Shown here: piece by piece, positions 10,841-59,210 of the stretch
Position numbering within the stretch: position 1 is the first letter of the stretch
Layout of the letters: each line of letters starts with the position of its first letter
Assembly: GCA_050250895.1 (NCBI GenBank)
Contig: JBFWNU010000001.1
Coordinates: forward strand, 1,806,884-1,870,883
Source of the DNA: Vulcanimicrobiota bacterium
GTDB lineage: Bacteria; Vulcanimicrobiota; Xenobia; Xenobiales; JADMJV01
Direction of reading: 5' to 3'
Length of the DNA: 64,000 bases
Notes under the pieces: generated by a model
Seen by the model: only the letters and a program-made list of their open reading frames with translations
What the model was told of the DNA's origin: nothing
The model's database searches: none
Made by a program: the position numbers and the translations under genes

Positions 10841-10917
10841 GGGGTTATAGCTCAGCCGGTTAGAGCGCATCCCTGATAAGGATGAGGTCCGTGGTTCGAG
10901 TCCACGTAACCCCACCA
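10841..10917 (+). tRNA. tRNA-Ile (GAT)
   Basis: Acceptor stem GGGGTTA/TAACCCC, anticodon arm CATCC-CTGATAA-GGATG, GTTCGAG T-loop and encoded CCA. Confidence 0.97.
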
Positions 10918-10918
10918 C

Positions 10919-10950
10919 AAGCTCCCCATCCTGGGCGGGCTTTTTTGTTT
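10919..10950 (+). terminator. Intrinsic terminator after tRNA-Ile
   Basis: Imperfect GC-rich hairpin (AAGCTCCCCA..TGGGCGGGCTT) followed by a T tract. Confidence 0.65.
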
Positions 10951-10953
10951 GGC

Positions 10954-10982
10954 TTGACCGTGAGGGCTTCTGGTGCTAGAAT
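10954..10982 (+). promoter_or_regulatory. Sigma70-type promoter for tRNA-Ala
   Basis: TTGACC-17 nt-TAGAAT with an extended -10 TG. Confidence 0.75.
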
Positions 10983-10993
10983 CCTATCTGCCC

Positions 10994-11069
10994 GGGGCCA
11001 TAGCTCAGCTGGGAGAGCGCCTGCCTTGCACGTAGAAGGTCGTCGGTTCGAATCCGACTGGCTCCACCA
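10994..11069 (+). tRNA. tRNA-Ala (TGC)
   Basis: GGGGCCA/TGGCTCC acceptor stem with G3:U70, anticodon TGC, GTTCGAA and CCA end. Confidence 0.95.
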
Positions 11070-11111: not shown

Positions 11112-11777
11112 CTAGGTGCAGTTGCTGCAGCAGAAGTACTCATCCTGGGTCGGAGTGTAGGTAAAGCCTCCGCACAGAGTCACATCGAGCTGACTGGCAT
11201 TGGGTCGAGCGATGGCGCAATTGACGTTGACCGAGGCCGGCTGAGCTGCGCTGAAGTCGACGCAGATCTGAAAATCAGCGCTGTCGGTGGCACATGACGC
11301 CGATTCGGGCAAGCGACCGGCGCTGCAAAAGCAACTGCCATCGCAGGCGCCAGGGTTGCAGCAGCACCTGCAGGTGGTGGCGGCGTTCGGGCAGGGGAGG
11401 CAGGGGGTGGGATCGTCTCCGCAGTCGAAGGTGCAGCCACTCGAGGCCGCCGCCGGTTGGGGCAGGGCCACGGTGGCAATGACAGGCAGAGCAGCCACTT
11501 TTCCCCACCGCGCGAGGAATTCGCGTCGACCTAACGGGGGTGAGTCGCTCTCTTCGAGCAGGCCAAGTTTCTGAAACTCGGTCACAGCCAGGGCCACCGT
11601 ATCAAGCTCTAGAGCCTCGGCCATCCCCAGGCACGATCCGTCACAAGCTCTGAACACCTCGGCCGCGCTAGCGTTCAGACTGTGAACCTGGTGATTGTGC
11701 GGGTCAAAAACCAGTAGTTCGTCACCCACCTGCGAGAAAACCAAAGCCGCTTTGCGTTGGGGCATCCGTCGGTCCAT
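11112..11777 (-). CDS. PqqD/RRE-domain protein with twin-arginine-like leader and Cys-rich C-terminus (putative RiPP-like precursor 1)
   Basis: VGDELLVFD..VHSLNASAAEVFRACDG (PqqD fold), then GRREFL..LPVIATVALPQPAAASS, then 18 Cys. Confidence 0.8.
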   Translation of the reverse strand: MDRRMPQRKAALVFSQVGDELLVFDPHNHQVHSLNASAAEVFRACDGSCLGMAEALELDTVALAVTEFQKLGLLEESDSPPLGRREFLARWGKVAALPVIATVALPQPAAASSGCTFDCGDDPTPCLPCPNAATTCRCCCNPGACDGSCFCSAGRLPESASCATDSADFQICVDFSAAQPASVNVNCAIARPNASQLDVTLCGGFTYTPTQDEYFCCSNCT

Positions 11778-25637: not shown

Positions 25638-25778
25638 GCAGGGAGCGCCGACGCTGTCGGCGAGCAGAGGAGCCGTGCGCTTCGCGCGGAGCTTTCGGCC
25701 TGCGGCCGACAGGGAGCGCGGCTGACGCCGCTAGAAGTTCTTTCCGGAGGGAGCGGCAGCGACCGACGCTCCTTTCCC
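25638..25778 (-). repeat. Modular palindromic intergenic element, copy A
   Basis: Its reverse complement closely matches 29054-29128 (..CCGCTCCCTCCG..CGGCGTCAGCCGCGCTCCCTGTCGGCCGCA..GGCCGA). Confidence 0.85.
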
Positions 25779-29003: not shown

Positions 29004-29171
29004 CAGGGAGGGCTCGCTTTGCTCGCGAGAGGAGTTCTCGCTGCGCTCGAGGGATGTCGGTTGCTACCGCTCCCTCCGAGAAAAGACGTCTACGGCGTCA
29101 GCCGCGCTCCCTGTCGGCCGCAAGGCCGAGGTCTCAGCCAAGGCTGCTCCCTGTCGACGCGCAGCGTCGAC
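29004..29171. repeat. Modular palindromic intergenic element, copy B (units in both orientations)
   Basis: Shares long blocks with 25638-25778, 55707-55800 and 56591-56806; abuts the dacB stop. Confidence 0.85.
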
Positions 29172-52640: not shown

Positions 52641-54905
52641 GTGGTGTCCGTCAATCCGAGAGCAATGGATAGAGCAACTCTCGAGAAAGAGCAGCAGGCA
52701 GAGGAGAGACCAGAATCTCTCGACTCGCTGCTAGAAACGATCTCGGGCTACTTCGATCCGAAGGATCGCGAAGTGGTCGAGAACGCGTTCGCTTTCGCCG
52801 AGAAATGTCACCGAGGCCAGACCCGGGCCTCTGGCGAGCCTTATATTCTCCATCCGGTTGAAGTGGCCCAGATTCTGGCCGAATACCGGATGGATTGTCC
52901 GACCATCGTGGCCGCGCTGCTCCACGACACCGTCGAAGACACCGAGGTCAGCCTGGTTGACATCGAGGAGAACTTCGGCGCCGAGGTCCGGATGCTGGTC
53001 GACGGCGTCACCAAGTTGACCGCCATCTACTCTCGCCAGGGCCGCGAGGCTCCCACTCCACGCTCCAAGCAGATGGCTCGAGCCGAGAATCTCCGCAAGA
53101 TCTTTCTGGCCATGGCTCGCGATCTGAGGGTTATTCTGATCAAGCTGGCCGACCGCTTGCATAACTTGAGGACACTGGACATTCTTCGGCCAGACAAACG
53201 GGAGCGTATCGCTTCGGAAACCCTCGAAATCTTTGCCCCCATTGCCTCGCGCCTGGGGGTCTTTCAAATGAAGCGCGAGTTGCAGGACCTTTGCTTCAAG
53301 TATCTCCATCCGGAGGAATACGAAGAGGTGGTGGCCGCCAGCGAGCGCCTGCGCGAGGGTCGCGAAGCGGCCATCGAAGAAGCCGTCGCCCAGATCCAGG
53401 AAAAGCTCAAGCGTCTCAACATCGAGGCCCAACTCGAATGGCGCGAGAAGCACCTTTACAGCACGTTCCAAAAGATGGAGCGAACCAACCGCAGCCTGGA
53501 GGAGATTTATGACCTGGTAGCCCTGCGCGTGATCGTGCCCAGAGTCGAGGACTGCTACAGCGTGTTGGGCGCCATCCACTCGGTGTGGATCCCGATGAAA
53601 GACCGCATCAAAGATTATATCGCGGTTCCCAAATCTAATAACTATCGCTCTTTGCACACCACCGTCTACGGCCCCAATCAGCAGCCGTTGGAGATCCAGA
53701 TTCGAACCTGGGAGATGCACCGGGTCAACGAGTTTGGTATCGCCGCTCACTGGGCCTACAAGGAAGGCAACAAGCCCTCTAAAGACGCCGGCCTGTTCAA
53801 GGAGATCTACCCCTGGATCCGGGCCATTCTCGACTGGCAGGCCGACTCGCGCGACGCGCGCGAGTACATCGAGAACCTCAAGCTTGACCTGCTCTCGAAC
53901 GAGGTCTTCGTGTTCACGCCTCGGGGTGATGTCATCGACCTGCCTAACGGGTCCTGCCCTATCGACTTCGCCTATCGCATCCATACCGAAGTCGGCCACA
54001 GTTGTGTGGGCGCGCGGGCCAACGGCAAGATGGTCCCTCTGACCTACAAGCTTCAGAACGCCGATATTCTCGAGATCATGACCTCGAAGACCGGTACCCC
54101 GTCGCTCGACTGGCTGCGCATCTGCAAGAGCAACCAGGCGCGCAACAAGATCAAGGCCTGGTTCAAGCGCGAACGGCGCGACGAGAACGTGGTTCGCGGC
54201 CGCGAGATGCTGCGGCGCGAGCTGGGCCGCCAGCGAATGGACAACATCCTGTCCGACAACGACATGCTCACTCGAGTGGCTACCCGCCTCAATTTCGTCA
54301 CCGTCGACGACCTCCTGGCCTCACTGGGATATGGCGAGACCACCCTGCCGCAGGTGCTGAGCCGGCTGCGCGACGAGCTGCCCAAGGAGGTCTCTCAGAC
54401 CCTGTTGCCGGCTCCCCGACGCACCGCGGCCAAGAAGGGCCTGGCTCAGGCCATTCGGGTCAAAGGGATGGACAATATCCTGGTCAAGTTCGCTCGCTGT
54501 TGCGCCCCCGTGCCCGGTGACCCCATCGTGGGCTACATCACGTTGGGCAAAGGCGTCTCGGTGCATGTGACCGACTGCTCGAACTTCAAAGCCCTGGTCG
54601 AAAGCTCGCCTGAGCGTTTCATCGAGGTTGCCTGGGATTCGCCCCTGGAAGACCCCATCTATCAGGTCGACATCGAGATCGAGGCGTGGGACCGCTCGGG
54701 CCTGCTATCCGACGTCATGAACGTGATCAACGAGTCCAAGGTGCCGACCCGTTCCTGTCGAGCCTGGGCTCGTAAAGATCGGGCCTGCATCAAGATCGCC
54801 GTCGAGATCGCCCACAAGAAGCAGCTCGAAGAGCTGATGAAGAAAATTCGTCATCTGCGCGATGTCATCCAGGTGGCGCGCATGAGCCAGCTGCGCTCAA
54901 AGTAG
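52641..54905 (+). CDS. rel: Bifunctional (p)ppGpp synthetase/hydrolase Rel
   Basis: ALLHDTVED hydrolase motif, [30 protein letters not shown] and ACT domains. Confidence 0.97.
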
Positions 54906-54907
54906 TC

Positions 54908-55348
54908 GTGCGGGCAGTGGTGCAGCGGGTCTCGCAGGCCCATGTCGAAGTTTCCGGAGAGGTCGTCGGCCAGATCGAAGCCGGCCTTTTGATCCTGTTG
55001 GGAGTAGCTCCCGAGGACGGAGACACCCAGGCCGCCTGGCTGGCCGAGAAAGTCGCCAATCTGCGCATCTTCGAGGACGCCGAAGGCAAAATGAACGTCT
55101 CGCTCGTCGAGTCGGGCGGTTCGGCCCTGGTGGTCTCGCAGTTTACTCTCTACGGCGATTGCCGCAAAGGACGGCGTCCGAGCTTTATTGGGGCCGCCCG
55201 CCCCGAGCTGGCCGACCGTCTTTACCAGGTCTTCTGCGAGCGCCTGCGGACGCTGGTGCCGAAGGTGGAAGAGGGCGTTTTTCAAGCCACCATGGCGGTG
55301 AACCTGGTCAACGACGGCCCCGTCACCCTGATCCTCGACACACCCTAG
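54908..55348 (+). CDS. dtd: D-aminoacyl-tRNA deacylase
   Basis: [12 protein letters not shown] and NDGPVT. Confidence 0.97.
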
Positions 55349-55401: not shown

Positions 55402-55659
55402 TTAGTCGCAGTAGGGGAGCAGAGCCAAAAAGCGGGCCCGCTTGACGGCGGTGGTCAGCATGCGCTGATACTTGGCCGAAGTCCCGGTGATGCGGCGAGG
55501 CAGAATCTTTCCGCGCTCGCTGACGAACTTGCGCAGCAGCCCCACATCTTTGTAATCGATCGTCTTGATCTTATTGGCCGAGAAGTAGCACACTTTCCGG
55601 CGGGGGCGCCGACCGCGACGTTTATAATCCATTGCTGCCATAGGTTTAACTCTCGCCAA
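55402..55659 (-). CDS. rpsR: 30S ribosomal protein S18 (start uncertain)
   Basis: [38 protein letters not shown]. Confidence 0.97.
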
Positions 55660-55706: not shown

Positions 55707-55800
55707 GGCTCGCTTCGCTCGCCAGGGAGCGCTCGCTTTGCTCGCGGGAGAAGGAGCGCCGACTGCGTCGGCGGGAGTAGGAGCGGCCCTTCGGGCCGGG
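55707..55800 (-). repeat. Modular palindromic intergenic element, copy C
   Basis: Four hairpin units (GCTCGCTTCGCTCGC, GCTCGCTTTGCTCGC, GCCGACTGCGTCGGC, GGCCCTTCGGGCC) joined by GGAGC linkers. Confidence 0.8.
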
Positions 55801-55861: not shown

Positions 55862-55893
55862 AAAAGAAAAAGCCCCGGCTTTCACCGGGGCTG
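55862..55893 (-). terminator. Intrinsic terminator downstream of precursor gene 2
   Basis: Minus strand AGCCCCGG-TGAAAG-CCGGGGCT followed by a T tract. Confidence 0.85.
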
Positions 55894-55982: not shown

Positions 55983-56579
55983 CTAGGGGCAGATGAAACC
56001 GCTGGCGGTTGGAAAAGGGGCGACACAAGGCGTCCCCACCGACACGCAAATGTAGTAGAACCCATTTGTTCCTCCCCCGCAGGCGGTGTTACAGAAGCCA
56101 CCGTCGCCCCCGGGTGGGCAGGCCGCGACGCAGGAGGAAGTTCGACACTGGGTCTCCCCAGAGGAGCAGGCGCCACCGCCTGACTGGCACTGATTCGCCC
56201 CAACACAGGTCCCAACCAGGGGCCCGCTGTCGGCCGCGGCCGGTTTTGGCAAAGCCACAGTTGCCACGAGGGCTGCCGAGGCCACGGTTTTGAGAAACTG
56301 GCGTCTCGGAGCGTCGTCGAAAGCGATGAGCTCAGCTCGGCTCAATTCCAGCAAAGCGTGTTCGAGTTCGAGCGAAGAAAGGGTGGTGAGGGCCCTTTTG
56401 AGGGCTTCCAAATCAGGATGGGCTTGGGCTGCCTCATAGACGCTGGCCGCTGGCTCACGAAGTGCGTGGACACAGAGCGCAGACGCGTCGTAGATAAGAA
56501 GCTCGTCCCCCACCCATTGGCCAATCAGGCCACGACGGAGCTTTATTTTCATGATGTCAGAATTATTTGATGACATCAT
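55983..56579 (-). CDS. PqqD/RRE-domain protein with twin-arginine-like leader and Cys/Gly-rich C-terminus (putative RiPP-like precursor 2)
   Basis: VGDELLIYD..VHALREPAASVY, then PRRQFLK..LVATVALPKPAAADS, then 11 Cys. Start may be 56552. Confidence 0.78.
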   Translation of the reverse strand: MMSSNNSDIMKIKLRRGLIGQWVGDELLIYDASALCVHALREPAASVYEAAQAHPDLEALKRALTTLSSLELEHALLELSRAELIAFDDAPRRQFLKTVASAALVATVALPKPAAADSGPLVGTCVGANQCQSGGGACSSGETQCRTSSCVAACPPGGDGGFCNTACGGGTNGFYYICVSVGTPCVAPFPTASGFICP

Positions 56580-56590
56580 GACACTTCCTG

Positions 56591-56806
56591 CCGGCTCGCG
56601 AAGCTCGGTTTGGAGACGGAGCGGCCCTGCGGCCGAGGTCTTCGCGCGAAGCGCCCGGCTGTTTCCTAGCGGCGTCAGCCGCTCTCCTTGTCGTGTGCCA
56701 GGCCGAGGTCTCCGCGCGAAGCCCACGGCTCCCTTTCCCTGCGGCGCAGCCGCAGCTCCCCGTCGACGCGCAGCGTCGAAATCTCAGCCGCAGGCTGCTC
56801 CCTGTT
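56591..56806 (+). repeat. Modular palindromic intergenic element, copy D
   Basis: CTAGCGGCGTCAGCCGC, GGCCGAGGTCT, GCGCGAAGCGC, GTCGACGCGCAGCGTCGA and TCTCAGCC..GGCTGCTCCCTGT are shared with copies A and B. Confidence 0.85.
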
Positions 56807-56858
56807 CAGCATAGTTTCAGAGAGTGGGGGTAGGGTGGCCATGGCAGGAGATATACAC

Positions 56859-57905
56859 ATGAACGTTGCCAACCACGCCAAATCACTGGGATTTCCCATT
56901 CCCAAGGACTATACTGGCCCGCCCGACGGGCTGTCTCACCCTCATCACCGCGAGCTACTGCGGCCGGTGGCCCGAGGGCTGCTAAGCCTGGGCTTTCGCA
57001 TCCAGGTCGAAGGGCGCGAGAATCTGCCAGAGGACGGGCCCGTCATCTTTGCCGGCAACCACCCGTCCACGGTCGAACCGGCCCTGATGGACCTGGTCAC
57101 CCTGGGCGACACCCGCTATATGGCCGACTATCCAAACTTTAGCGGCTTCGGGGGCAAAGTGGTGACGGCCATGGGAGCCTATCCCGTGGACCGCCTCAAT
57201 CCTTCGCTCACGGCCGTCAAGCACAGTCTCGATCTGCTCAAAGACGGCGTCAATCTAGGCCTGTTTCCTGAAGGGCAAATGAGTGAAAACCCGCAGCAAG
57301 TGGGTCCTTTCAAGCCCGGAGTGGGCACGCTGGCCGTGCGTGGCAAGGCCGAGGCGGTGGTGCCCATGGCCTTTCACTACAAGCCCGACGACCAGCCTCG
57401 CTGGGGCGAGAAGCTGGCTGGCTGGGGCGCTGCCCTGGCCGTGGGTGCCGGGGCTGTCCTGGCTTCGAGTGCCGGGCCCGCTGCAGCCAGCCTGGCCGGG
57501 GTGGTGACGGGAGCCCTGACCGGCGCTTTCACAGCCGGGGCGGTAGCTCACCACTTTACCAGACCGGCGGATGCCCGGGTGCCTTACAACCAGTTGATGG
57601 CCACCGCCCTGGCGGGAACGGCCGGGGCCGTGGTGGGAGGCGTGTTGGGGGGGCTGGTGCCCAACCCCGTTTTCACCGCGACCGGGTCTCTATCCGTGCT
57701 GGGGATGACCCACGCCTGGCAGCAGCGGCCGGTGGCCGCGGTCAAGATCGGTCAGCCCCTCAAAGTCGAACCTTACACTCAGCAATACGGCCGAAAAGAC
57801 GCCCCGCTCGTGCTCACCGAGGACGTGCACCGGGCCGTCGGCCATCTCAAAGCCGAACTGGGCGGAGCCGCCTACGACGAGTCCGCCCCCAAGGTCCGTG
57901 ATTAG
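56859..57905 (+). CDS. Lysophospholipid acyltransferase (PlsC-like) with hydrophobic Gly/Ala-rich insertion
   Basis: NHPSTVEP, YPVDR, FPEG and FKPG; AGGAGA RBS. Confidence 0.85.
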   Translation: MNVANHAKSLGFPIPKDYTGPPDGLSHPHHRELLRPVARGLLSLGFRIQVEGRENLPEDGPVIFAGNHPSTVEPALMDLVTLGDTRYMADYPNFSGFGGKVVTAMGAYPVDRLNPSLTAVKHSLDLLKDGVNLGLFPEGQMSENPQQVGPFKPGVGTLAVRGKAEAVVPMAFHYKPDDQPRWGEKLAGWGAALAVGAGAVLASSAGPAAASLAGVVTGALTGAFTAGAVAHHFTRPADARVPYNQLMATALAGTAGAVVGGVLGGLVPNPVFTATGSLSVLGMTHAWQQRPVAAVKIGQPLKVEPYTQQYGRKDAPLVLTEDVHRAVGHLKAELGGAAYDESAPKVRD

Positions 57906-57914
57906 GAGTCACCA

Positions 57915-59210
57915 ATGCGAATAACCCATTCCGCCGCCAGAAAACCCCAGATCCCCTCGGTCTTCAAGCCCTACCTGGTCGACCCGCCGGCCCCGGTGCC
58001 TCAGCTGCAGCGTCCCGTGTTGATTGTCCCCGGGGGACGCAGCCAGCGAGTGGGGCTGCCGGCCCTGGTGAATTTTCTCACCGAGGGCAGCCCCAATCAG
58101 TATGCGGGGCACTACAACGTCGAGCAGAAAGACAAGTTCGAAGAGACCTATCGCGAGCACGGCGGCAACGTTTTCACCCTGCAATATACCCACAAGTTCG
58201 GGTCGGTCGAGCGTAACGCGGGCGAGATCAAGCAGGCTATCGAGGACATCCGCCGGGTAACCGGGGCCGATGAAATCGACGTGGTGGCCGAGTGTAAGGG
58301 CTCGGTGGAAGAGCGGCAGTACCTGCACGATGTCGAGGAGGGCCAGGACGGCATTCGCAATCTGGTGCAGTTGGTTCCGCCCAACCACGGTATCCCGGCG
58401 GTGGGCGACGTGACGAACCTTTGGGTTCGCTTGATCGAGGGACTGAAACTACCGGTCAAGAGTTTTCACGGGGTAGCGCTCGATTCGGAAGCGTCCGAAG
58501 CCTATAAGAGCTTTGGGGGTGACTGGAAGGTCGGGCCCCTCGAGGGCAATCCGCGCATTCGCCAGTTCAACTCGCCTGAGAGTGTGGCCAAAGAGAAGCG
58601 GGCGTACCATTCCTTGACGGTGGTCGGCGGCGACGGCCACAACCAGCTCAAGATGATGGGTATGCCGGGGCTGCCGCTACCCTGGCTCCAGGGCGACAAC
58701 GAGTTGCCCCGTTCGGCGGCCTATCTCGAACACGCTGACAACAACTTTTTCTACAACGGAGAGAACGGCGAGCACGCCAAGGTCCAGTTTCATCCCAAGG
58801 CCCTGGCCAAGATCGCCGAGACGCTGGTGACCGACGGCAATCCCAGCCGCGACGAGCACTACGTAGGCGAGCAGCCCAGCATGACCGACATTCGCATTCG
58901 AACCGGCCTCTACGGCGTCTCGCTGGCAGGACGGCTCGGGGCGGCTGGGTTCGCAGTGGCCGGGGCGCCCATGGGTTTGGCCGGCAACGCCCTGGCCATG
59001 GTTGGCCTGGGGTTGACGGCGGTCGATGCCGGTTGGCAAGTCAACCGCATCCTCAAGGGCGAAGAAGAGGTCGTCAAAGGCAGTATCGGCGTGTTGGCCA
59101 AGGCTGCCCAGGTGGCCGGAGTCGGGCTGGCTTTGACCGGCACGGGCTGGCCGGCGGCTGTCTTGATCGGCGGCGGCCTAGCCGCCAGCGCCTGGGCCTG
59201 GCATAACTAG
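57915..59210 (+). CDS. Lipase-like alpha/beta hydrolase with C-terminal hydrophobic helices
   Basis: PVLIVPG, IRRVTGADEIDVVAECKG and LVQLVPPNHG; AGGAG RBS. Confidence 0.75.
   Translation: MRITHSAARKPQIPSVFKPYLVDPPAPVPQLQRPVLIVPGGRSQRVGLPALVNFLTEGSPNQYAGHYNVEQKDKFEETYREHGGNVFTLQYTHKFGSVERNAGEIKQAIEDIRRVTGADEIDVVAECKGSVEERQYLHDVEEGQDGIRNLVQLVPPNHGIPAVGDVTNLWVRLIEGLKLPVKSFHGVALDSEASEAYKSFGGDWKVGPLEGNPRIRQFNSPESVAKEKRAYHSLTVVGGDGHNQLKMMGMPGLPLPWLQGDNELPRSAAYLEHADNNFFYNGENGEHAKVQFHPKALAKIAETLVTDGNPSRDEHYVGEQPSMTDIRIRTGLYGVSLAGRLGAAGFAVAGAPMGLAGNALAMVGLGLTAVDAGWQVNRILKGEEEVVKGSIGVLAKAAQVAGVGLALTGTGWPAAVLIGGGLAASAWAWHN

Follow-up and report, generated by a model that had tools for sequence, protein, structure and literature searches.

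On the reverse strand of a 64,000-nt stretch of contig JBFWNU010000001.1 of a Vulcanimicrobiota bacterium (assembly GCA_050250895.1; the whole stretch is called the window and all positions refer to it), a gene designated q1 encodes a protein in which three modules follow one another: a leader domain with the PqqD/RRE fold (RRE, RiPP recognition element; RiPP, a peptide made on the ribosome and modified after translation), a signal of the twin-arginine translocation (Tat) type and a Cys- and Gly-rich C-terminal part referred to as the core. A paralogue, q2, encoded in the same window has a homologous leader and an unrelated core. The features of the two genes were as follows.

55983-56579, reverse strand: q1 preprotein gene, an intact open reading frame (ORF) of 198 amino acids, stop codon included in the coordinates, ending at 55983
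56584-56589, reverse strand: Shine-Dalgarno-like AGGAAG, 4 nt before an ATG at 56579 and 7 nt before an ATG at 56576, proposed from sequence only
56316-56549, reverse strand: PqqD/RRE-fold leader domain, residues 11-88, from an AlphaFold2 model and Foldseek
56232-56306, reverse strand: internal twin-arginine-type signal, residues 92-116, with RRQFLK, the hydrophobic (h-) region TVASAALVATVAL and the c-region PKPAAA
55986-56231, reverse strand: predicted released core, residues 117-198 (DSGPLVG...GFICP), with 11 Cys, Gly-rich, no relatives found
55871-55892, reverse strand: intrinsic-terminator-like hairpin and T-run, 91 nt past the q1 stop, 9 pairs (7 GC), tail TTTTCTTTTA
11112-11777, reverse strand: q2 paralogue, homologous leader and an unrelated 108-aa core with 18 Cys

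The initial annotation had described q1 as an RRE-Tat-Cys-rich precursor, and this architecture was borne out by the modelled fold, the signal motif and the family to which the protein belongs. The AlphaFold2 model of q1, built on an alignment of 128 family sequences, had block-mean pLDDT (predicted local distance difference test) values of 95-97 at residues 11-80 and of 87 at residues 81-90. Strands were modelled at residues 11-14, 18-23, 26-31 and 36-40 and helices at 42-53, 57-63 and 69-81, which gives the small antiparallel sheet followed by three helices of the PqqD/RRE winged helix. The best Foldseek match in the Protein Data Bank (PDB) was the lasso-peptide RRE TbiB1 with its leader (5v1v_A; E = 6.5e-4, TMt of 0.71, root-mean-square deviation of 2.8 over 88 superposed columns), followed by the RRE parts of TigE, LynD, CteB, SuiB, TruD, PbtF, MibB, TbtB and MccB. 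The winged helix of a small beta-sheet and three helices is thus shared with TbiB1 and other lasso B1 RREs and with PqqD (PF05402), but those proteins are free chaperones or are fused to enzymes, whereas in q1 the domain forms the N-terminal leader of the presumed substrate and is followed by an export signal. The sequence of q1 also differs in scoring under the curated cut-offs: both q1 and q2 reached 19.8 bits with TIGR04353 (cut-off 35), and PF05402 (cut-off 23.4 bits) gave no match to q1 at E ≤ 1 and 18.1 bits for q2.

Behind this domain, residues 92-116 matched the TIGR01409 model with 17.9 bits (cut-off 16.7). The segment reads P-R-R-Q-F-L-K against the Tat consensus S/T-R-R-x-F-L-K and continues into an h-region and an A-x-A site. 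R92 was invariant among the 128 family sequences and R93, P111 and A116 were conserved in at least 90% of them. The uncharged run after the arginine pair was 13 residues long in q1, with a median of 12 and a maximum of 20 in the family. Tat signals normally sit at the N-terminus of a protein and not internally, whereas the motif of q1 begins at residue 92, behind the folded domain; to our knowledge, internal Tat-type signals are known only downstream of transmembrane helices.

The alignment of q1 with the gene at 11112-11777 over the leader motifs, proposed in the initial annotation, was also confirmed. BLASTP paired residues 8-119 of q1 with residues 2-114 of q2 (43 identities in 121 columns, 36%; E = 9e-15), and the leaders were 41% identical in a MAFFT alignment, in which VGDELL, RRxFL and ATVALPxPAAAxS were the same in both proteins. 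Homology was confined to the first ~118 residues of q1 and nothing aligned past the AAA site. Accordingly, the Smith-Waterman score of the leaders was 131 against 27.7 ± 4.9 for shuffled sequences, a value reached by none of 1000 shuffles, whereas the cores scored 47 against 43.4 ± 7.5, and 287 of 1000 shuffles did as well. The annotated contrast between a conserved leader and an unrelated core therefore stands for the pair, and it proved to be the rule across the family too; a conserved leader joined to a variable core is the arrangement by which RiPP precursors are recognised. The core of q2 belongs to a recurrent subfamily ending in ...C.(D/A)AR...Y.CC.C. A hidden similarity of the q1 core to this subfamily was considered and rejected, as a profile of 15 q2-like cores gave it -3.9 bits, a score equalled by 176 of 500 shuffles.

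The extent of the family was assessed with a profile of the q1 and q2 leaders searched against 1.84 billion cluster representatives. It matched 4472 clusters at E ≤ 1e-3 and 398 at E ≤ 1e-10, the sole match at E ≤ 1e-30 being q2 itself. The best 150 of the 4472 matches all extended to profile position 123 or further, so that these 150 include the export signal. The common layout consists of a PqqD-like domain, (S/T)RR..L, a hydrophobic stretch and P.P.A.A, after which come unrelated C-termini of ~1-460 aa, which are short Cys-rich cores, Gly/Pro/Thr-rich tails or larger domains. The pattern RR...P..AxA was present in 175 of 198 family sequences and Ser or Thr directly preceded the arginine pair in 138 of 180. 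At E ≤ 0.01, PF05402 (PqqD) matched 109 of 128 members, TIGR04353 80 and the ScmD model TIGR04248 36; models of lasso or pyrroloquinoline quinone (PQQ) PqqD proteins matched family members as well. A leader hidden Markov model (HMM) built without the window sequences recovered q2 with E = 4e-35 and q1 with E = 2e-20 over the whole model and matched no other ORF of the window; together with a six-frame BLASTP search of the window it yielded q1 and q2 only, with no third paralogue.

Two q2-like relatives came from Vulcanimicrobiota metagenome-assembled genomes (MAGs), and family members were seen in public records as 'hypothetical protein' or 'twin-arginine translocation signal domain-containing protein'. 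The full-text literature searched, which did not cover subscription-only papers, yielded no account of a family in which PqqD, Tat signal and core are fused, and a term search found no mention of a Tat signal or a kinase in two RRE surveys (PMC7470986, PMC12710340). The family is thus large and apparently undescribed, and the q1 system is read here as a variation on the known RRE/HprK-like peptide systems. Some members carried tandem PqqD-like domains before the signal, seen as two profile stretches in each of P0014, P0094, P0103 and P0126 and by eye in P0062 and P0078.

Among 175 family cores, 134 contained at least four Cys and 31 contained none. The number of Cys was even in 126 of the 134, most commonly six (41 cores, median length of 38 aa) or eight (36 cores), and the C-C-CC-C-C spacing of cystine knots occurred in 50 of the 175. 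The Pfam toxin-knot models matched one member each, weakly (E = 0.004-0.009). Even Cys counts across the family make disulfides likely, and the cores are likely to be disulfide-paired as judged from these counts. The odd Cys number of q1, from which a non-disulfide linkage had been suggested, is thus an exception within the family rather than a clue to special chemistry.

The q1 core is an outlier with its 11 Cys. After ...AAADS it comprises 80 aa with 17 Gly and no CC doublet, and the six-Cys C-C-CC-C-C arrangement of knottins was not found in it. Word-based searches with the whole protein (108-347 aa) and with the core (30-107 aa) returned zero homologues, no relative of the core was present among the 198 family sequences and no look-alike of it was found in the ESM Atlas; the whole protein fell on unnamed PqqD clusters. 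A lipoprotein was considered for q1 and rejected, as by eye no Cys follows the AAA site.

Genes accompanying family members were surveyed in loci collected from species-representative genomes with a degenerate DNA pattern for G[DE]ExL[VIM]YDx6HxLN. The pattern yielded 49 loci, in Acidobacteriota, Chloroflexota, Actinomycetes, Armatimonadota, Eremiobacterota-type MAGs, Methylomirabilota and one cyanobacterium; L039 overlaps L025 and was left out, and all ORFs within 7 kb were clustered for the remaining 48. A regular expression recognised the fused architecture in 40 of the 48, a few others being truncated or missed by the expression, and L029 and L047 encode free-standing PqqD proteins. The most frequent neighbour was an HprK-like P-loop protein of ~280 aa, encoded near the family gene in 27 of the 48 loci, within ~150 bp of it in 24 and with abutting coding regions in seven. 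It was mostly encoded directly upstream on the same strand. Five of these proteins were examined and matched TIGR04352 with E-values of 7e-6 to 3e-17, and the Walker-A residues G128, G133 and K134 were invariant in 25 aligned copies. In L044 (10145-11878), the HprK-like gene was fused to an extra N-terminal region of ~300 aa with a P-loop-like GGTGGSG motif.

The second recurrent neighbours, encoded in 10 of the 48 loci, were giant proteins (1200-3100 aa) with a gingipain-type Peptidase_C25 domain at their C-terminus (E = 3e-41 to 4e-87 for the six examined). They stood next to the family gene in L009, L011, L021, L032, L037 and L045, and some contained beta-propeller or beta-helix domains. 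They may process the precursors or be inhibited by the Cys-rich products. Both types of neighbour occurred in two loci and neither in 13, of which four have at least 5 kb on both sides. No radical S-adenosylmethionine (SAM), lanthionine-synthetase, cyclodehydratase or similar gene recurred beside the family genes in the 48 loci.

Docking was modelled for the HprK-like protein of L031 (alignment of 25 rows) with residues 1-100 of the leader encoded beside it (25 rows). Three runs gave ipSAE values of 0.76, 0.76 and 0.75 against 0.42 for the best control; they shared at least 91% of contacts, with a partner pLDDT of at least 83. The mark applied to ipSAE is reached by 116 of 157 solved complexes and by 2 of 215 mismatched pairs, a calibration that serves as a rough guide only, since the present models used their own alignments. 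In the modelled interface, kinase residues 218-248 lie on leader residues 14-34, which form the most conserved strands of the family. The model supports docking of the HprK-like protein on the conserved strands of the leader in this relative, and q1 keeps E26, L28, Y30 and H38 in the predicted docking strands.

L031 is one of eight near-identical two-gene loci, each with an HprK-like gene and a precursor gene (L005, L023, L026, L027, L031, L033, L035 and L043), whose leaders are 62-96% identical. These loci came from MAGs labelled as Baltobacteraceae, Limnocylindrales, Methylomirabilota and Acidobacteriota genera, and their near-identity across phyla could reflect mis-binning or transfer.

With somewhat more confidence than doubt, q1 is read here as a three-module preprotein made of a folded PqqD/RRE leader, an internal Tat-type signal and a hypervariable, usually disulfide-rich core. 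This reading builds on the fold, the motifs, the family membership and the partner statistics described above, together with a docking prediction made for another member. The RRE domain (residues 11-88) would fold and remain in the cytoplasm, where a partner enzyme would dock on its conserved strand surface VGDELLIYD...VHAL; in the family loci of other genomes, this enzyme would be the HprK-like P-loop protein encoded right beside the precursor. As the partner would dock on the precursor's own RRE, the recognition element would be carried by the substrate and not by the enzyme. The RRQFLK signal would insert as a hairpin and take the C-terminal part across the membrane, and signal peptidase I would cleave after A114-A115-A116, the Ala-x-Ala site inferred from the sequence, freeing an 82-aa Cys/Gly-rich mini-protein. 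The released product would be stabilised by disulfides, and phosphorylation may occur. The 64-kb window holds no partner gene, so that q1 and q2 are orphan copies and any partner would have to act in trans, from elsewhere in the genome.

Several observations weigh against this reading, and the first group of them concerns the export signal. It lies behind a folded domain of ~90 aa instead of at the N-terminus, the Pfam model TAT_signal (PF10518) gave q1 17 bits, under its cut-off of 22.7, and TIGR01409 matched just 18 of 128 family members at E ≤ 0.01. In addition, some members have nearly no C-terminal part after the signal, which fits with a function residing in the RRE and the membrane segment. 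The partner is a second weak point. The five HprK-like neighbours examined scored 25-62 bits with TIGR04352 against a curated cut-off of 200, about eight of the 27 loci linked to a kinase represent a single locus in orthologous copies, and the motif used to collect the loci lies in the predicted docking surface, so that kinase-linked members are possibly over-represented. In the window itself, BLASTP and an HMM of the 27 neighbours detected no HprK-like ORF, and no C25 or other peptide-modifying enzyme gene was found by Pfam searches of the neighbours and 38 further ORFs. Finally, q1 is an atypical member: it lacks the CDG motif of the family, its core has an odd Cys count and is modelled with low confidence (pLDDT of 42-62), its GC content at third codon positions (GC3) is 0.65 compared with 0.72-0.83 in neighbouring genes, and the protein is missing from the collections searched.

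The main rival explanation treats q1 as an uncleaved single-pass membrane protein, in which the arginine pair and the hydrophobic stretch form a signal-anchor, the RRE, on the cytoplasmic face, tethers the HprK-like protein to the membrane or acts as its adaptor, and the core is an ectodomain rather than a released product. In its favour, some members end a few residues past the hydrophobic segment (P0027, P0008, P0044, P0051 and P0139), so that a core may be dispensable for the conserved function; the modelled kinase contact touches the RRE domain only, and the q1 core has no confident fold. Against it stand the conserved Pro...small-x-small signature at the end of the hydrophobic stretch, with P111 and A116 at 90% or more and 175 of 198 sequences fitting RR...P..AxA, the short uncharged run, and the knottin-sized cores with even Cys numbers, which look like secreted mini-proteins. 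We therefore regard the anchored form as unlikely, while counting it as the strongest competitor of the exported one.

Cross-linking of the core Cys by thioether or other non-disulfide bonds, installed by an enzyme reading the leader as in a classical RiPP pathway, appears improbable. In its favour, RRE folds are characteristic of RiPP pathways (PMC7470986), the leaders weakly match PqqD-type chaperone models of radical-SAM-linked cassettes such as ScmD, and the q1 core has 11 Cys. What recurs in the 48 loci, however, are HprK-like and C25 neighbours and no cross-linking enzyme, none is encoded in the window, and the Cys-rich cores are almost always even in Cys number. An equally small probability is given to the RRE being a built-in Tat proofreading chaperone, which would bind its own signal or core in cis and delay export, in the manner of TorD/DmsD but fused to its substrate, for as long as the core is not yet folded or modified. 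RRE domains do bind short peptides as an added strand (PDB titles, TbiB1-leader complexes), the domain immediately precedes the signal, and the model adds a short strand at residues 85-87 after helix 3, in the block of residues 81-90; but the RRQFLK segment itself is modelled at a pLDDT of only ~61, and in the docking prediction the HprK-like protein occupies the conserved strand surface. Such a role is compatible with the three-module preprotein rather than exclusive of it. That q1 is a decaying or silent paralogue of the q2 family without present function is the least probable account, for although the protein is absent from ~15 billion predicted proteins in which dtd and q2 are present, was not recovered by the profile search and combines a low GC3, an odd Cys count and a lost CDG motif with a core lacking any detected relative, it retains an intact frame of 198 codons, a Shine-Dalgarno-like site, a terminator, an end-to-end match to the family HMM (E = 2e-20), an RRE modelled at a pLDDT of ~96 and a perfect RRQFLK and AAA site.

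Extended from q1 to its relatives, the preprotein reading leads to a broader proposal, advanced here tentatively. It places q1 in a widespread unrecognised class of exported mini-proteins, in which a substrate-borne RRE would recruit an HprK-like kinase, a core that is often knottin-like would leave by a Tat-type route and the RRE would stay inside. As part of the same joint claim, and to be taken with the same reserve, several orphan precursors with swapped cores would be served by one enzyme in trans.

Of the curated models, those of HPr-rel-A (TIGR04352 with TIGR04353, PqqD_rel_X) and SynChlorMet ScmC/ScmD (TIGR04249/TIGR04248) matched the leader and the neighbouring gene best, and they share the pairing of an HprK-like with a PqqD-like protein. 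They differ in that scores were far under their cut-offs (q1 reached 19.8 bits where 35 are required, the five partners 25-62 where 200 are) and in that they describe free-standing PqqD proteins without signal or core. Of the two features of HPr-rel-A, q1 shows neither: its PqqD_rel_X score is below 35 bits and no HprK-related kinase A is adjacent. The nitrile-hydratase-like, Nif11-like and prochlorosin-type RiPP sets also combine a long, conserved, protein-derived leader with hypervariable cores and scattered paralogues away from the enzyme, but their leaders have a different fold, are cleaved at Gly-Gly and are exported through an ABC transporter/protease, whereas the q1 family has the RRE fold, a Tat-type signal and an AxA site.

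According to PMC13381572, paeninodin-type lasso clusters and those for linear polyphosphorylated peptides (LPPs) pair an RRE with an HprK-like kinase, and LPP precursors of 35-200 aa have conserved N-termini, highly variable C-termini and a leader removed by an enzyme of the signal peptidase I (SpI) type. These traits resemble the presumed q1 system, including leader removal of the SpI type. In the latter, the RRE is fused to the precursor, export would use a Tat-type signal, the other cluster genes are absent and the hosts are Acidobacteriota, Chloroflexota, Actinomycetes, Armatimonadota and others. None of the LPP genes named there (discrete RRE, HprK-like kinase, SpI-like/B2 peptidase, NTP transferase, MsbA-like exporter) was found in the window, and among them only the HprK-like gene recurs in family loci (27 of 48). 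The [Y/W]xxP motif of LPP leaders was by eye absent from q1, in which Tyr 30, 48, 174 and 175 and Trp 22 have no Pro at +3. Bufferins (DUF2282), as described in PMC12710340 and PMC11626156, are Cys-containing precursors with a general-secretion (Sec) signal within the leader. In them the signal is N-terminal and the RRE (DUF2063, RRE-like) is found on a separate partner of an MNIO enzyme, in contrast to the internal Tat-type signal and precursor-borne RRE of q1. A non-N-terminal Tat signal is shared with dual Sec-Tat membrane proteins, in which an internal twin-arginine signal after Sec-inserted transmembrane helices exports a cofactor domain (PMC5449189); that of q1 differs in following a soluble folded domain and preceding a small Cys-rich part.

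The distinction matters for RRE-based genome mining, which takes the RRE to be enzyme-borne or a free chaperone and the precursor to be a short peptide nearby. Such mining would overlook or misinterpret a family of thousands of clusters whose substrates have the RRE as their own leader. If the proposal is right, the family would constitute a large natural library of disulfide-rich mini-proteins from rarely cultured soil phyla, a test case for Tat export by an internal signal behind a folded domain and a new role of HprK-like kinases beyond the lasso and LPP pathways.

The gene-mobility and selection hypotheses attached to q1 concern its two intergenic flanks and the divergence of the cores. 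The flanks contain the following blocks, neither assigned to a strand.

56591-56806: mosaic block of repeats upstream, separating q1 from the divergent acyltransferase gene and resembling 25669-25734 and 29093-29170
55707-55800: downstream repeat block between the q1 terminator and rpsR

The repeats annotated on both sides of q1 are real, but they consist of different modules on the two sides, and neither flank folded better than composition-matched shuffles (z of -1.13 and -0.03). In the upstream block, a unit of 24 nt (56670-56693) has further copies at 25707-25730 and 29093-29116 (three in the window in all, against zero expected), and 30 nt are duplicated internally (56631-56660 and 56701-56730). 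In the downstream block, 55723-55753 matches 29004-29034 at 28 of 31 positions and 55757-55773 matches 25646-25662. The short motif GGGAGCGC was not enriched (8 found, 8.1 expected). A dispersed mosaic family of short GC-rich repeats thus occupies four intergenic regions (25646-25767, 29004-29170, 55707-55800 and 56591-56806), between which its modules are shuffled and duplicated, presumably resembling REP/BIME-like elements.

At 29004-29170, both modules lie ~60 nt apart, while at q1 they are ~920 nt apart with the gene between them, a spacing that fits the insertion of q1 into a repeat block and fits just as well a simple build-up of repeats in intergenic DNA. The notion that the repeats helped q1 to move found no support, as q2 has none nearby, the other copies are intergenic and away from both family genes, and the two flanks of q1 differ. 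A search for the locus in relatives with a family alignment gave 154 pattern matches, none of them a relative, and turned up neither an orthologous locus nor a close genome.

Diversifying selection, which had been deduced from the contrast between leader and core, was not demonstrated either. In one set of eight orthologues, the leader had a median ratio of nonsynonymous to synonymous divergence (dN/dS) of 0.15 over 28 pairs and the core one of 0.20 over the 18 pairs in which the ratio was defined, and because dS was saturated, these orthologues cannot support positive selection. A comparison of L026 (9947-10414) with L027 (6291-6758) showed leaders 96% identical (dN of 0.02) and cores 54% identical (dN of 0.38), a sequence contrast that suggests occasional replacement of the core on a conserved leader.

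The immediate surroundings of q1 are formed by housekeeping genes and an acyltransferase gene.

52641-54905, forward strand: relA/spoT
54908-55348, forward strand: dtd
55402-55659, reverse strand: rpsR, on the far side of the q1 terminator
start probably near 56856, as taken from the sequence, divergent from q1: acyltransferase gene

The coding frame of q1 starts with a tandem ATGATG, the ATG codons at 56579 and 56576 both lying behind the AGGAAG site. Expression as a single cistron with its own terminator, as annotated, is plausible because the acyltransferase gene is divergent and rpsR lies beyond the terminator-like hairpin. A terminator scan found one site against 1.8 expected in shuffles, so the terminator is backed more by its position than by the count. 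Exact look-ups of q1 at three ATG starts gave no match in ~15 billion predicted proteins, unlike those of q2 and dtd; q1 may be unannotated in the public record and, for the source genome, is flagged as a gene apparently missing from the protein collections searched.

Adjacent tRNA-Ile(GAT) and tRNA-Ala(TGC) genes were noted at 10841-11069, just downstream of q2. This pair is usually found in the 16S-23S spacer, and Rfam detected no rRNA anywhere in the window. ARAGORN called a tRNA-Pro(TGG), probably falsely, at 57412-57484, inside the Ala/Gly-rich part of the acyltransferase ORF; Rfam did not report it at gathering score. Long hydrophobic tails rich in Gly and Ala form the ends of the acyltransferase (57400-57905) and of the ORF that follows it (57915-59210, without a Pfam match; tail at 58900-59210).

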